64,000 bases of DNA, taken from Lachnospiraceae bacterium (GTDB lineage: Bacteria; Bacillota; Clostridia; Lachnospirales; Lachnospiraceae). Below the pieces are notes generated by a model that saw nothing but the letters and a program-made list of their open reading frames with translations, was not told where the DNA came from and ran no database searches. The stretch is taken from NCBI GenBank assembly GCA_014804695.1, contig JAAUZJ010000007.1, forward strand, positions 53,545 through 117,544. Reading direction: 5' to 3'. A program made the translations under genes and the position numbers. Shown piece after piece: positions 43,885 to 48,758 of the stretch (its first letter is position 1; every line of letters begins with the position of its first letter).

Positions 43885-44640
43885 CTATTGTTGTTCAGCG
43901 CGGCGTTTACGTATGCCTTCAAGAATTACTTCTTTTTTCTCAAGTAACAGTTTCTTCTCCATTGCGGGAACGCCCTTTAGTTTATATTCAATGCCTAACT
44001 TCTGATACTTATTTTCGCCCATTGTATGATATGGAAGTGCATCTAAGGCTTTCAGGTTTTTAAACTGGCCGATAAAATATCCAAGTTTATACAGATACTC
44101 ATCGTCATCGGTAAGTCCCGGAACAATGACATGGCGGATCCACATATCGACATTTTTTTCATTCAGATATGCGGCAAAAGCAAGGATGCCTTCGTTGGGC
44201 TGGCTGGTAAGTTCCTTATGCTTTTCAGGATCAATGTGCTTGATATCGAGCATAACAAGGTCTGTCAGCGTCATTAATTTATCCAGTTTAGCAAGCCATT
44301 CGGGATTGCCGTTTGGTTTATAAGCGATTCCGGAAGAGTCGATGCAGGTGTGAATTCCTTTTTTCTTGGCAAGTGTAAAAAGGTCAATGAGAAAGTCAAC
44401 CTGCATAAGCGGTTCACCGCCCGTTACAGTGATTCCGCCACCTTTATAGAAACTTACATTCCGCTCATACTGCTCGATTATATATTCCGGCTCCATTAAA
44501 GTACCGCCGTTCATCTCCCATGTATCAGGATTGTGGCAGTAGGCGCATCGCATGGGACAGCCCTGAACGAATACAACAAAGCGGACTCCCGGACCGTCCA
44601 CCGTACCAAAACTTTCTAACGAGTGAATTCTTCCTTGCAT
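43885..44640 (-). CDS. pflA: Pyruvate formate-lyase activating enzyme (radical SAM)
   Basis: GTVDGPGVRFVVFVQGCPMRCAYCHNPDTW (CxxxCxxC cluster) and GGGITVTGGEP. Confidence 0.95.
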   Translation of the reverse strand: MQGRIHSLESFGTVDGPGVRFVVFVQGCPMRCAYCHNPDTWEMNGGTLMEPEYIIEQYERNVSFYKGGGITVTGGEPLMQVDFLIDLFTLAKKKGIHTCIDSSGIAYKPNGNPEWLAKLDKLMTLTDLVMLDIKHIDPEKHKELTSQPNEGILAFAAYLNEKNVDMWIRHVIVPGLTDDDEYLYKLGYFIGQFKNLKALDALPYHTMGENKYQKLGIEYKLKGVPAMEKKLLLEKKEVILEGIRKRRAEQQ

Positions 44641-44803
44641 AGTTTATAGCCTTCTTTCTGTTTATTTTGATTATATTTATGATATTATTTTGTATTAATA
44701 TTTACATTCTATGTAATAAGTATTGTCAAGCTAGATATAGTATACCCTGTCATGGATAAAAAAACCAGTCTTTTATATTATAAATGCAGTTATAAATCAC
44801 ATA

Positions 44804-44845
44804 TAAAAAGCTGCACACCGTTAAACATAACGGATGTGCAGCTCT
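44804..44845 (-). terminator. Rho-independent terminator after the glycyl-radical-domain ORF
   Basis: On the minus strand: AGAGCTGCACAtCCGTTA-loop-TAACGGtGTGCAGCT followed by TTTTTAT. Confidence 0.75.
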
Positions 44846-44883
44846 TAGAATTTCAGTAATTCAATCAGCCATCTTGCGACTAA

Positions 44884-45129
44884 TTAGATACTCTCATGGA
44901 ATGTACGAGAGATAACGTCAGCCTGCTGTTCAGGTGTTAATTTAATGAAATTAACAGCATATCCGGAAACGCGGATTGTAAGCTGAGGATAGTTCTCGGG
45001 ATGTTTCTGAGCGTCTAATAAAGTATCTCTGTTGAGAACGTTTACATTAAGATGATGACCGCCTTTTGTTGCATAACCATCTAATAATGATACCAGGTTA
45101 TCTACCTGAGCTGTGTTTGTTTCTGCCAT
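44884..45129 (-). CDS. Stand-alone glycyl-radical domain protein (GrcA/YfiD-like; equals the missing PFL C-terminus)
   Basis: [81 protein letters not shown]. It contains the RVSGYAV radical-glycine motif and has its own AGGAGG RBS. Confidence 0.88.
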
Positions 45130-45192
45130 TTTAATTTCCTCCTCTAATATTCATATAGTCATAATTCGATAGCATGCGCTAACTTAAGGGTT

Positions 45193-45396
45193 TTAACGAA
45201 AATCATCAAGACCTTGTTCCAGAGTTGGAACACTGCATGCTAATGGTGTTCTGGAACAGTCAGTACATCCCATAGTCTGTACTTCTTTAGAATTATTGGA
45301 TTCGGCATCTACATCGACATTAACATGACCGACACCCTGTGCCATTCCTGAATCCATCATTTTGATAAAATCATCAATCATCTGTTTATCGTCCAT
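45193..45396 (-). CDS. Small Cys-containing ORF inside the PFL split (67 aa from ATG; 70 aa from GTG 45405)
   Basis: MDDKQMIDDFIKMMDSGMAQGVGHVNVDVDAESNNSKEVQTMGCTDCSRTPLACSVPTLEQGLDDFR. An AAAGGTGG RBS lies 5 nt upstream of the ATG. It has weak similarity to the glycyl-radical domain but no RVSGY motif. Confidence 0.55.
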   Translation of the reverse strand: MDDKQMIDDFIKMMDSGMAQGVGHVNVDVDAESNNSKEVQTMGCTDCSRTPLACSVPTLEQGLDDFR

Positions 45397-45420
45397 AACA
45401 ACCACCTTTATCTGTTTTTA

Positions 45421-47460
45421 CTATTTATTTAAGTCTAATTCAATATCACCAGCAAATACCTGATCTTCTTTACCAAGTGCACCAGGGATAATGGTAAATG
45501 TATTAGAAATACCATCCTGAGCATCCTTGAACGGAAGTTTGGATACTGAAGATAAGGAAGCTACTGCACCATGAGTATCACGTCCGTGCATCGGGTTAGC
45601 ACCGGGAGCAAACGGCTGGCCTTTCTTACGTCCGTCAGGTGTATTACCTGTAGCCTTACCATATGTTACATTAGAAGTAATAGTAAGGATAGAAGTTGTA
45701 GGAACACCGTTTCTGTAGGTGTGGTGTCTTCTGATCGCGGTCATGAATTTATGAACGATCTCCTGTGCAATAAGGTCAACACGGTCATCGTCATTACCAT
45801 ATTTCGGGAAGTCGCCTGTTGTCTTGAAGTCAACGATAACGCCGTCTTCATCTCTAATAGGCTCAACCTTTGCATATTTGATTGCTGATAAAGAGTCAGC
45901 TACGATAGACAGACCGGCAACACCTGTTGCGAAGTAACGTTTTACGTCTCTGTCATGAAGAGCCATCTCTGCTCTCTCATAGCAGTATTTATCATGCATA
46001 TAGTGAATGATATTCAAAGTATTTACATATACGTCGGCCTGCCATTCCATCATATCCATGAATTTAGCATATACATCATCATAATCAAGAACATCACCCT
46101 CTACAGGACGATATTTAGGTCCAACCTGTTTCTTGGTAACTTCGTCAACACCGCCGTTTAATGCGTAAAGCAGACATTTAGCGAGGTTTGCACGAGCGCC
46201 GAAGAACTGCATTTCTTTACCGATAACCATAGAAGATACGCAGCATGCGATACCGTAGTCATCGCCATGGGTAACTCTCATAAGGTCGTCGTTCTCATAC
46301 TGGATTGAAGAAGTCTGGATAGACATCTTAGCACAGTATTTCTTCCAGTTCTCAGGAAGTCTGGTAGACCAGAGAACTGTTAAGTTCGGCTCCGGAGAAG
46401 GTCCTAAGTTTGTTAAAGTATGCAGATAACGGAAGCTCATCTTAGATACTAACGGACGTCCGTCAACACCAACACCACCAAGAGATTCGGTTACCCATAC
46501 CGGATCGCCTGCGAAAATCTGGTTGTATTCAGGTGTACGAGCAAATTTGATCAAACGTAATTTCATAATGAAGTGGTCAACGAATTCCTGAATCTGCTCT
46601 TCAGTGAATGTTCCGTTAGCCAAATCTCTTTCTGCATAGCAGTCAAGGAATGTAGAAGTACGTCCAAGAGACATAGCAGCACCGTTCTGCTCTTTAACTG
46701 CGCAAAGATAACCAAAGTAAGTAGCCTGGATAGCTTCCTGTACGTTAGTAGCAGGTTTAGAAATATCGCAGCCATAGGAAGCAGCCATTTCTTTCATGAG
46801 CTTAAGAGCTACCATCTGCTCTGAAAGCTCTTCACGAAGACGGATTACATCGTCTGTCATAACACGTCCTGTAGAATCTTTCTGAGCCTGTTTGTCTTCA
46901 ATAAGATAATCGATACCATACAGAGCAACACGTCTGTAGTCGCCGATGATACGTCCACGTCCATAAGCATCCGGAAGACCTGTGATGATATGTGATGAAC
47001 GGCAAGCTCTCATTTCCTGATTGTAAGCATCGAAGCAGCCTGCATTGTGTGTTTTTCTGTGTGTGGAGAAGAACTCGCTGATCTCAGGGTCAACTTCATA
47101 ACCGTTGTCGGAGCAAGCCTTTTCTGCCATTCTGATACCGCCGTAAGGCTGAAGAGAACGCTTGAAGGGCTTATCTGTCTGGAAACCAACGATTGTTTCT
47201 TTGCTCTTGTCCAGATATCCGGGACCGTGGGATGTAATTGTGGAAATTACCTTAGTATCCATGTCAAGTACACCGCCGGCTTCACGTTCCTGTTTCTGTA
47301 AATCAAGAACCTGTGCCCATAAGTCTTTTGTGTTCTGTGTAGGAGCAGCTAAGAAAGAGTCATCGCCTTCATAAAGGTGATAGTTCCTCTGAATGAAGTC
47401 ACGTACGTTTACTTCATTCTCCCACTTGCCGCCTACAAAATCTTTCCATTCTGGTCTCAT
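45421..47460 (-). CDS. pflB: Pyruvate formate-lyase catalytic body, lacking the C-terminal glycyl-radical domain
   Basis: PFL-like throughout: active-site GIACCVSS (Cys-Cys) and [22 protein letters not shown]. It ends ...[22 protein letters not shown] with no RVSGY motif. An AGGAGG RBS precedes it. Confidence 0.9.
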
Positions 47461-47724
47461 TTTGAATAGCCTCCTGTTTTAATATATTTTTGATATGTTT
47501 AGCATGTCATATAAATTAAGAAAACATGCTTAAAATCCTGTATATTTATTATATTTAAATAATAAGGTTACGTCAAGTCGGGCAATTGTACTTTTTCTCA
47601 TACAAAGCATGAATTTTAATGTAATTTTTTGTGAAAAATGTATGATGTGGCTTGCAGTAATTGTGATTTGCGACTATACTGTATAGCAGAAAACTTACTC
47701 AAACAAAATCGGAGGTATAAAAAT

Positions 47725-47916
47725 ATGGCAGAAATAACGAAAGAGATGACAATTGGAGAGATTTTAAGGACAAACCCTGATGTGGCGCCTATACTTATGA
47801 ATGCGGGTATGCATTGTCTGGGCTGTCCTTCGGCACAGGGCGAATCATTAGAAGAAGCCGCTATGGTGCATGGTATGAATATTGATGATTTAATGGCACA
47901 GATTGAGGCACTGTAG
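47725..47916 (+). CDS. DUF1858 domain protein (hybrid-cluster-protein-associated redox disulfide type)
   Basis: [51 protein letters not shown] prefer the ATG at 47725 with a GGAGG RBS over the track's start at 47638. Confidence 0.8.
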
Positions 47917-47955
47917 AAACAACGTTTGGTATATTTTGCAAACTGTCTTTATGTT

Positions 47956-47990
47956 AAAAAAGGAATCTGAAATTGCTCAGATTCCTTTTT
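47956..47990. terminator. Bidirectional terminator (DUF1858 gene on +, mecA on -)
   Basis: AAAAAAGGAATCTGA-loop-TCAGATTCCTTTTT. Confidence 0.75.
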
Positions 47991-48005
47991 ACGTTCTTAT
48001 GATAT

Positions 48006-48758
48006 TTAAATATTTGCCAAAGACGGTATGGCCTTATCTTTGATGACCGGTTCAAAGTGCTCTTCCAGATAGGATTCTGCTGCGGATGAAAAAGGTTCCG
48101 GTTTGCCGTATTCGCTCAGAATGTTACAAATTCGGTTAAAGTCCGCGGTCTTAAGTCCCAGAGGACTTATGAGCAGAAGATATGAACCATCATTGTCGTT
48201 TTTGTATAATGAACTTGCGCCTTTGTATATTGGCGCGGCAATATGCGCAAGCTTTATTACGTCAGAAAGAGATACAAAGGAAAACATACGCTCAGTATGC
48301 GGAACGGAAAGCGCATCCTTATTCTGTGTGGAAGGTGTATTAACGGTATCGGAAGACGGCGTTGTCCGGCTCTGCTGATCCATCTTGCGCAGCATATCTA
48401 TCACCTCATCGGCATTGTCCGAAAATGCTTCAATAAGGTCATCGTCATCATCATAAACCTCGTCATGAACCGAAGGCGCAAATTTGGAAAAACGTGTATC
48501 GAGTTCTTCGGGGTCTTCCACTTTAGTTATAATAAGAACTATACATTCCGCGTTAAGGGGAATTGCTTCTATCATAAGCGGAATATCTTCTGCTTCAAAT
48601 CCGCATTCATAAGCGGCTAACTGCATCATATCACGAAACAGGGTTTTAGCCTTGTCGGTACCGTATGCCAGTTCGCTTATTTTTAATTCCCTGTCCGCTA
48701 AATCTTCTCTTGTGAGCGTGCAGCGAATCTGATGTTCGTTTACTTTTTCGATTTTCAT
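48006..48758 (-). CDS. mecA: Adaptor protein MecA
   Basis: MKIEKVNEHQIRCTLTREDLADRELKISELAYGTDKAKTLFRDMM is a MecA-type N-terminal domain. An acidic linker and a C-terminal domain follow. Confidence 0.85.
   Translation of the reverse strand: MKIEKVNEHQIRCTLTREDLADRELKISELAYGTDKAKTLFRDMMQLAAYECGFEAEDIPLMIEAIPLNAECIVLIITKVEDPEELDTRFSKFAPSVHDEVYDDDDDLIEAFSDNADEVIDMLRKMDQQSRTTPSSDTVNTPSTQNKDALSVPHTERMFSFVSLSDVIKLAHIAAPIYKGASSLYKNDNDGSYLLLISPLGLKTADFNRICNILSEYGKPEPFSSAAESYLEEHFEPVIKDKAIPSLANI

Follow-up and report, generated by a model that had tools for sequence, protein, structure and literature searches.

On the minus strand of a contig from a gut Lachnospiraceae bacterium (JAAUZJ010000007.1, assembly GCA_014804695.1), pyruvate formate-lyase (PFL) is encoded in pieces. 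The stretch analysed, called the window here, is 64,000 nucleotides long, and the locus runs from 47460 to 43885 in the following order: the PFL catalytic body (ORF1, or pflB'); a 67-residue open reading frame (ORF2); a stand-alone glycyl-radical domain (GRD) of 81 residues (ORF3, or grcA3); an intrinsic terminator; and pflA, which encodes the activase (Table 1). These elements had been picked out earlier from the letters of the DNA, and renewed reading of the window sequence reproduced every element and position of that sequence-only reading.

ORF1 matches the Pfam PFL-like family at 2.8e-218, and carries both GIACCVSS, with the Cys-Cys active site, and GANPMHGRD. Against TIGR01255 (formate C-acetyltransferase) it scores 1089.6 bits, above the cut-off of 994.2, in a match that spans only positions 2-665 of the 744-position profile. 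The barrel and the Cys-Cys site that mark this family are thus present, whereas the RVSGY domain expected on the same chain is missing: profile positions 661-744 are matched by ORF3 instead. The Gly_radical profile (106 positions) is divided in the same way, with positions 1-51 alone matched by ORF1 and positions 49-106 by ORF3 (1.6e-23). In alignments with the Escherichia coli enzyme, ORF1 corresponds to residues 10-681 and ORF3 to residues 681-758; because one alignment ends and the other starts at residue 681, the two pieces abut exactly.

In a canonical PFL, the counterpart of ORF3 is the stretch of ~79 residues that closes the chain (E. coli 681-759) and holds a helix, strand beta10, the Gly finger and a carboxyl-terminal helix. 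The amino-terminal region of ORF3 includes the His-containing beta10 strand, GGHHLNVNV. With 161.2 bits against a cut-off of 158, over model positions 2-78 of 78, ORF3 belongs to the family NF038360, "autonomous glycyl radical cofactor GrcA3". It falls outside TIGR04365 (GrcA/YfiD), where it scores 100.6 bits against a cut-off of 170 and matches model positions 65-126 only; it aligns to residues 66-127 of GrcA (6owr, 1.8e-25). The earlier identification of the 679-residue frame as a PFL body with a Cys-Cys site and no RVSGY motif, and of the 81-residue frame as the missing GrcA/YfiD-like radical domain, is upheld by these matches.

Each small gene has its own translation signals. ORF2 starts at an ATG at 45396 and stops at 45193 (67 residues, or 70 if translation begins at the GTG at 45405), with GGTGG 5 nt ahead of the ATG; the grcA3 start is preceded by AGGAGG, at 8 nt. 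From the ORF1 stop codon to the ORF3 ATG is 291 nt, and fusing V668 of ORF1 to D10 of ORF3 deletes exactly 354 nt. The terminator consists of an 18-bp bulged hairpin followed by a U-run, with a folding free energy of -36.2 kcal/mol (z = -7.3); a simple scan overlooks it because of the bulge in the hairpin. The pflA product matches TIGR02493 at 2.8e-89 (298.5 bits, cut-off 231.75), which places it among the radical S-adenosylmethionine (radical-SAM) activases. The 291-nt gap, the AGGAGG site, the strong terminator and pflA as the next gene had all been claimed before, and all hold at these positions. No further PFL or GRD sequence was found in the 64-kb window.

Table 1. Features of the split PFL locus and its neighbours, with positions in the window
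Feature	Position	Strand	Basis
pflB' (ORF1): PFL catalytic body, 679 aa, GIACCVSS Cys-Cys site, without glycyl-radical loop	45421..47460	-	Pfam, TIGR01255
Acidic post-junction tail of the body, 11 residues	45424..45456	-	conserved in related loci
ORF2: conserved 67-aa small protein (putative pseudo-GRD)	45193..45396	-	family clusters, dN/dS, hhalign
Shine-Dalgarno site GGTGG of ORF2	45402..45406	-	sequence reading
grcA3 (ORF3): stand-alone glycyl-radical domain, 81 aa, radical Gly56 in RVSGYAV	44884..45129	-	NF038360
Shine-Dalgarno site AGGAGG of grcA3	45138..45143	-	sequence reading
Intrinsic terminator 3' of grcA3	44800..44846	-	RNA fold and U-run
pflA: PFL-activating radical-SAM enzyme, 251 aa	43885..44640	-	TIGR02493
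Promoter-like site TTGACG-17-TATAAT (11/12) upstream of pflB'	47548..47576	-	consensus scan only; no evidence of function
Promoter-like site 5' of pflA	44698..44670	-	consensus scan
Gln-Val codons within the 7-nt repeat TCAGGTA, body side of the break	45457..45462	-	
Gln-Val codons within the 7-nt repeat TCAGGTA, GRD side of the break	45103..45108	-	
DUF1858-type "redox disulfide" protein with CLGC (ORF listed 47638..47916)	47725..47916	+	
2x[4Fe-4S] ferredoxin, 58 aa	43467..43643	-	
250-aa ORF beyond the DUF1858 gene	48006..48758	-	

The order of body, ORF2, ~80-residue GRD and pflA is conserved in 87 of 87 related loci, with pflA downstream of the GRD as in the window. It recurs with ORF2 homologues that are only 29-37% identical, in a further lineage with a different body tail, and in the cultured type strain Acetatifactor muris. 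Close ORF2 relatives, used as queries against one genome per species, are present in at least 542 species genomes, mostly Lachnospiraceae. Clustering at 90% identity gives families of nearly equal size for the two halves of the enzyme: 4368 members for ORF1 and 4179 for ORF3 (about 1:1). Numbers of this order put the arrangement well outside what chance would give.

Selection has acted on all three frames. Ratios of nonsynonymous to synonymous divergence (dN/dS, Nei-Gojobori, three lineages) lie at 0.03-0.04 in the body gene, close to 0.06 in ORF2 and at 0.03-0.06 in the GRD gene, and dS is near 1 or saturated; strong purifying selection is thus evident on each. Between species with up to 25% divergence in PflA, body identity is 93-98%, and the end point of the body is constant: wherever the full gene lies within the locus it encodes 678-679 residues, greater lengths at some loci being due to in-frame ATGs upstream. 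Beyond the junction, the tail follows the pattern VFAGD[IL][ED].DL[NS]K; read by eye rather than by scored alignment, it may be a degenerate strand of the beta10 type. Of 86 loci, 84 have AGGAGG ahead of the GRD gene, and a Shine-Dalgarno-like site precedes ORF2 in 85 of 87. The suggested search for the tripartite layout in relatives, once run, thus found it retained in all 87 loci and in distant lineages, and the earlier argument against a decaying pseudogene gains from the constant order, the low dN/dS (0.03-0.06) and the retained ribosome-binding sites.

ORF2, treated as a curiosity in the sequence-only reading, turns out to be the most informative and least understood part of the locus. 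At 90% identity its family falls into 1665 clusters, which come mostly from Lachnospiraceae and without exception carry the label "hypothetical"; at 50% identity there are 129, nearly all of which represent stand-alone proteins of 60-75 residues. The consensus of 56 diverse members, M....IDDIV.MLD.....G.GH.NV.V......V.T....DC......AC.VPTL..G.D, describes an amino-terminal helix, a GH.NV.V strand and then a Cys-pair motif, DC(x6)AC.VPTL..GLD. The best-conserved residues are D15, G21, G23, H24 (53/56), C47 (50/56), C54 (54/56) and P57 (56/56). Residues 1-31 of ORF2 align with residues 1-33 of ORF3, which form the first helix and the His-containing beta10 strand, at an hhalign probability of 95.3% (E 2.3e-8). 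The only NCBIfam match, at a weak E of 0.09, falls on the amino-terminal positions of the GrcA3 model; Pfam and PDB returned no match (the latter also when searched with the ORF2 profile), and the family scans found no metal-binding or thioredoxin-like family.

The homology with the GRD is confined to the helix and strand. ORF2 lacks the radical-Gly finger of PF01228 (RVxG[FWY]), and its conserved Cys are C47 and C54 only, whereas accessory Fe-S subunits of glycyl radical enzymes have at least four. In 121 of 182 ORF2 sequences, Cys54 lies 30 residues beyond the conserved His, which equals the spacing from His26 to Gly56 in the GRD. Since the alignment there is ambiguous and spacing alone agrees, we make no claim that Cys54 replaces the radical Gly. 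A three-Cys metal site was discarded (Cys44 is present in 19 of 56 members), as was a second radical Gly site (Gly43 in 18 of 56, with Cys at position 54). The AlphaFold model of ORF2 alone has a confident amino-terminal helix and is otherwise unstructured, as would fit a segment that folds on a partner. ORF2 may best be described as a radical-dead GRD derivative, in which the Cys-pair motif would replace the Gly finger and last helix.

The origin of the second half of ORF2 is suggested by sister lineages, in which the body tail runs on into the same Cys-pair motif. A search with the carboxyl-terminal region of the PDB chain 38lb (a GRD-less "formate acetyltransferase", considered further below) recovered many carboxyl-terminal fragments of GRD-less PFL bodies. 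After ALGK.D.V, all of these tails contain an acidic strand-like segment, F.GD[IL][DE].[DE]L, and many then reach DC..GAC..PTLFEGLD, in which the Cys pair is C-x4-C. Residues 46-67 of ORF2 align with these body-fused tails at an hhalign probability of 96.4% (E 1.2e-9); with each half thus matched separately, ORF2 is a chimera of the GRD amino terminus and the body-tail motif. In global alignment, the window's ORF1 ends exactly where the fused motif starts, and the tails listed for the 87 ORF2-type loci are free of Cys. At fused-tail loci a GRD gene of ~80 residues follows 28-46 nt downstream, and then pflA, without ORF2; among loci of the fused type overall, the gap before the GRD is mostly 1-102 nt, and in one case 662 nt.

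When metagenome contigs were scanned, without bias, for DNA patterns encoding AC..PTLFEGLD, 40 loci emerged. The motif stands in protein context in 39 of them and appears in no frame of the remaining one. Among the 39, it lies at the carboxyl terminus of a PFL body of 699-738 residues in 34 and in ORF2-like small proteins in four; one is a chance match. Wherever the contig is long enough, a stand-alone GRD of ~80 residues follows every real match. The Cys-pair motif thus appears to be supplied either in cis, as a body tail, or as a separate protein, and always together with a split PFL. Tails in other lineages are more Cys-rich: PDCAEC; CGCCE; and, in the 38lb type, DCACE..GCED. The 38lb tail was rejected as an ORF2 homologue, the ORF2 profile having found nothing in the PDB.

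A plausible origin would begin with a fused-tail ancestor, in which tandem duplication of the Cys motif, stop codon, Shine-Dalgarno site and GRD helix plus strand would have created ORF2; the body would later have lost its own copy of the motif. The same Gln-Val pair is encoded on both sides of the break, within the 7-nt repeat TCAGGTA. One copy closes the conserved part of the body and the other opens the region homologous to the GRD; in relatives, the pair is conserved at the protein level. The repeat may be a vestige of the duplication behind the split.

Several loci depart from these layouts. In three Collinsella-like metagenome contigs (L093, L094 and L100), a carboxyl-terminal body piece of ~100-118 residues, starting MNDTYRNS and with the tail PDCAEC or DLDQLGE, precedes a GRD of 83-99 residues; an opposite-strand gene lies immediately 5' of the piece in L093 and L100, and in L094 the piece begins at the contig end. 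Such a piece may be what is left of a gene, a gene broken by an insertion, or PFL split in another way. Three carboxyl-terminal PFL fragments of 142-202 residues (P0297, P0380 and P0389) have a contiguous junction and are called as whole genes on contigs as long as 699 kb; for the one that comes from Absconditicoccaceae, gene calls may be cut short by an alternative genetic code. At L091, L092, L097 and L099 the body is called as two overlapping pieces (~570-600 and 109-130 residues) owing to a frameshift or a run of Ns; probably these are errors of assembly, picked up because the protein search favoured short products.

The surroundings of the locus are also partly conserved. Divergent from the body gene, and just upstream of it, is a gene for a DUF1858-type "redox disulfide" protein with a CLGC motif; it recurs in 49 related loci, A. 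muris and loci with a fused tail among them, and there may be a link between it and the Cys pair conserved in ORF2 or the tail. Beyond it lies a 250-residue ORF, kept as a neighbour in 35 loci, whose counterparts in two of them (L001 and L141) match Pfam MecA, an adaptor protein. Directly 3' of pflA, a small 2x[4Fe-4S] ferredoxin is encoded in the window and in 52 related loci; it may serve the activase as a dedicated electron donor. Only the terminator and a promoter-like site lie between the GRD gene and pflA in the window; some lineages have an extra small ORF of 61 or 94 residues there, of no known family (L001, 4694..4879; L088, 1203..1487).

Together, these observations lead us to favour, at a probability of about 0.72, a naturally split heteromeric PFL with a replaceable radical subunit, accompanied by a pseudo-GRD module that would lie in or beside the GRD site. 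The body has no GRD of its own and therefore needs one in trans. Judging from PFL biochemistry, GrcA3 would dock in trans, with its Gly finger and beta10 strand entering the body; PflA, the product of the adjacent gene, would install the radical on Gly56 of GrcA3; and the assembled complex would then work as canonical PFL. After cleavage by O2, the ~9-kDa radical subunit could be replaced without remaking the 76-kDa body. The pseudo-GRD module, whether fused or free, would occupy or flank the GRD docking site as a placeholder or recognition element: it would keep the GRD-less body competent, and would govern loading or exchange of the radical subunit. By analogy, it may correspond to the remnant of E. 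coli PFL (residues 696-733) that is needed for YfiD binding, here hard-wired. The sequence-only reading had called the radical domain an obligatorily separate subunit. That it is a separate polypeptide stands, given the 87 of 87 loci and the dN/dS values; that the separation is obligatory we only infer.

Some results weigh against this proposal. According to the engineering study cited below, truncated E. coli PFL binds YfiD poorly, so a GRD supplied in trans is not automatically efficient. The conserved Cys pair and the DUF1858 neighbour with its CxxC motif agree with a role in redox chemistry no less well than with a passive plug. The carboxyl-terminal half of ORF2 aligns to the GRD Gly finger with near-zero hhalign column confidence, and two registers are possible there, with either Cys54 or Gly43 on Gly56. 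An AlphaFold2 model of the body, made from a shallow alignment, has a mean pLDDT (predicted local distance difference test) of only 43 and lends the placeholder idea no support. Finally, the search that found no second PFL covered the 64-kb window, and an intact pflB may lie elsewhere in carrier genomes. ORF2 could be a placeholder, a recognition element or a redox element.

The redox element is the substance of one competing explanation, in which the enzyme is split just as proposed but ORF2 or the fused Cys tail is a redox- or metal-dependent regulatory subunit that binds along with the live GRD. A C47-C54 disulfide switch, or a metal site across the PFL dimer, might for instance gate activation by PflA or shield the active-site Cys. 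Conservation of exactly two Cys, with the pair retained in the fused tails, speaks for such a subunit, as do the still more Cys-rich tails of other lineages and the recurrent DUF1858 and ferredoxin neighbours. Moreover, a Zn(Cys)4 site is known from the radical domain of class III ribonucleotide reductase, and Fe-S clusters from the small subunits of benzylsuccinate synthase (BSS) and 4-hydroxyphenylacetate decarboxylase (HPAD). However, a single chain has too few Cys, only two, to bind a cluster unaided, ORF2 has no metal-binding or thioredoxin-like family match, and its amino-terminal half duplicates exactly the elements with which the GRD docks into the body (the helix and the His strand), which points to competition for the GRD site. 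We regard a regulatory subunit of this kind as a serious, though less probable, alternative or addition. Equally tentative is a variant that joins both ideas, a dummy cartridge: the module would sit in the radical-domain socket with its Cys pair near the catalytic Cys-Cys, and would be swapped for activated GrcA3 under redox control, for which the DUF1858 CxxC protein and the ferredoxin could be partners; or it would permanently fill the silent half of a half-of-sites dimer.

Two further explanations would dispense with a split enzyme. The body might be a dead or moonlighting remnant, and GrcA3 a spare part for an intact PFL elsewhere, as GrcA/YfiD is in E. coli. ORF3 is indeed homologous to GrcA, and GenBank names such proteins GrcA or GrcA3; besides, unsplit PFL carboxyl termini up to 82% identical exist in databases, as recovered with a chimeric junction query that returned carboxyl-terminal fragments only. 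But a dead body would hardly show the measured dN/dS and identity, keep its Cys-Cys site or score above the TIGR01255 cut-off; its end residue is constant and the GRD is always next; the two families are of about equal size; and GrcA3 begins exactly where the body ends, without the 60-residue amino-terminal region of GrcA. We regard a spare part of this kind as very improbable. Still less weight, indeed next to none, is due to any reading in which the three frames are rejoined or misread: a spliced intron; protein splicing; bypass or readthrough; an insertion in the style of a homing endonuclease; or an assembly error. In the window all three frames are in phase, the insert is exactly 354 nt, and TCAGGTA is repeated at both junctions. 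Across the 87 loci, however, relative frames are random (16/30/41 for ORF1-ORF2 and 31/28/27 for ORF2-ORF3), with spacers of -11 to 164 nt and 10 to 690 nt, respectively, so the shared frame of the window is a coincidence, and neither it nor the in-frame insert was kept as meaningful. Five stop codons separate ORF1 from ORF3; each frame retains its own Shine-Dalgarno site; ORF2 is under purifying selection and has no nuclease domain; and split inteins would need far longer flanking extensions than the 11 and 7 residues present. A permissive Rfam scan (E<=1) of 44500-48000 found no intron or ribozyme, but one weak sRNA- or terminator-like match outside the genes. The marks of an intron, an intein or programmed recoding are thus lacking: no Rfam family, no fixed frame, and stops between the pieces. 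An assembly artefact or a pseudogene was dismissed on conservation and dN/dS, the same sequence having come from thousands of independent assemblies. For practical purposes assembly error, decaying pseudogene, intron, intein and recoding are excluded.

The natural split PFL with its pseudo-GRD module, preferred here, is partly visible in existing records. GenBank names the small proteins GrcA or GrcA3 and the body "formate C-acetyltransferase", and the PDB holds two "formate acetyltransferase" entries without a GRD, 38la and 38lb. The 38la chain (687 residues) ends SLGKED, exactly at the junction; the 38lb chain (739 residues) has a 44-residue, Cys-rich, non-GRD tail ending DCACEADASAKEGCED. 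Neither entry contains a chain that matches ORF3 or ORF2. Relatives of 38lb (L091 and L092) have an 80-residue GRD and then pflA, with no ORF2. A literature search found no paper on a natural split PFL, on GrcA3 or on 38la/38lb, and text searches within a 2026 review and further papers on glycyl radical enzymes found no natural split PFL. As far as we have seen, the split has been recognised at the level of annotation and structure deposition, and not in the open literature. The sequence-only reading, which took the arrangement to be undescribed, was right about papers but overstated the case, given the GrcA3 family NF038360, the GenBank names and the two PDB entries. What is new here is the chimeric ORF2, whose family lacks annotation, and the Cys-pair motif in its fused and free forms.

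In many gut anaerobes PFL is the main route from pyruvate to acetyl-CoA plus formate, and Lachnospiraceae are dominant producers of butyrate and acetate. If PFL consists of a body plus a replaceable 9-kDa radical subunit in at least 542 species, the E. coli model of a single chain, with a spare part after damage, would fail for much of the gut microbiota. A natural split would also offer an experimental handle on several questions: how the radical domain leaves and re-enters the barrel during activation; how the body recognises a GRD in trans; and how the enzyme copes with cleavage by O2. The ORF2 or Cys-tail module would be a widespread, strongly conserved and wholly unannotated partner of a textbook enzyme, and A. 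muris is a cultured carrier of the operon that could be used for experiments. Were the dummy cartridge to prove true, the glycyl radical would be a regulated, exchangeable subunit instead of a fixed cofactor; we know of no radical enzyme for which such control has been described.

The closest known counterpart is E. coli PflB with GrcA/YfiD (and, similarly, phage T4 Y06I), in which a small, PflA-activated GRD gives a radical Gly to a deficient body. There, however, PFL is a full-length chain of 760 residues and GrcA is needed only after cleavage by O2, whereas here the body is GRD-less by its gene and the trans arrangement constitutive. The small protein differs too: GrcA3 (78-81 residues) starts with a helix equivalent to PFL residues 681-693, and lacks the unrelated, disordered 60-residue amino terminus of GrcA. 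In E. coli grcA is unlinked to pflB and ORF2 has no counterpart; here the GRD gene lies inside the PFL operon.

Truncated bodies with a GRD in trans have also been engineered. According to Andorfer et al. 2021 (PMC8683613), E. coli tPFL(1-695) with YfiD is as active as wild type once activated, but binds YfiD and is activated poorly because residues 696-733 (beta10, a helix and half the loop) are required for recognition and binding of YfiD; a complex of cPFL(1-733) with YfiD was made as well. The natural system likewise keeps a beta10-like element, in the body tail and the ORF2 strand, beside the live GRD. Its break lies ~15 residues further upstream than that of tPFL, at E. coli residue 681, and what it retains is a diverged, selected Cys-pair module, whereas the E. 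coli remnant is a cleavage product. Presumably, the natural pair is co-adapted, unlike tPFL and YfiD.

The database records NF038360, 38la and 38lb describe parts of the same arrangement: in the 38lb lineage there are two pieces, a long-tailed body and a GRD, and ORF2 is absent, whereas the window has three, and neither the family nor the PDB entries cover ORF2. Small Cys-containing proteins that influence the radical domain are known beside other glycyl radical enzymes, namely the beta and gamma subunits of BSS and the small subunit of HPAD. These bind [4Fe-4S] clusters through at least four Cys and have no GRD homology, and their catalytic subunits retain their own GRD; ORF2, by comparison, has two conserved Cys and appears GRD-derived. 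Finally, in phage Aeh1 the ribonucleotide reductase gene nrdA is split by the homing endonuclease gene mobE, and its pieces are translated separately and reassemble. The resemblance lies in a radical enzyme gene in pieces with an ORF in the break. There the insert is a mobile endonuclease; here it would be a derivative of the enzyme's own domain, without a nuclease signature and vertically conserved in a bacterial family. Set beside these systems, the Lachnospiraceae locus would represent the spare-part principle of PFL and GrcA made constitutive, together with a widely conserved third component.

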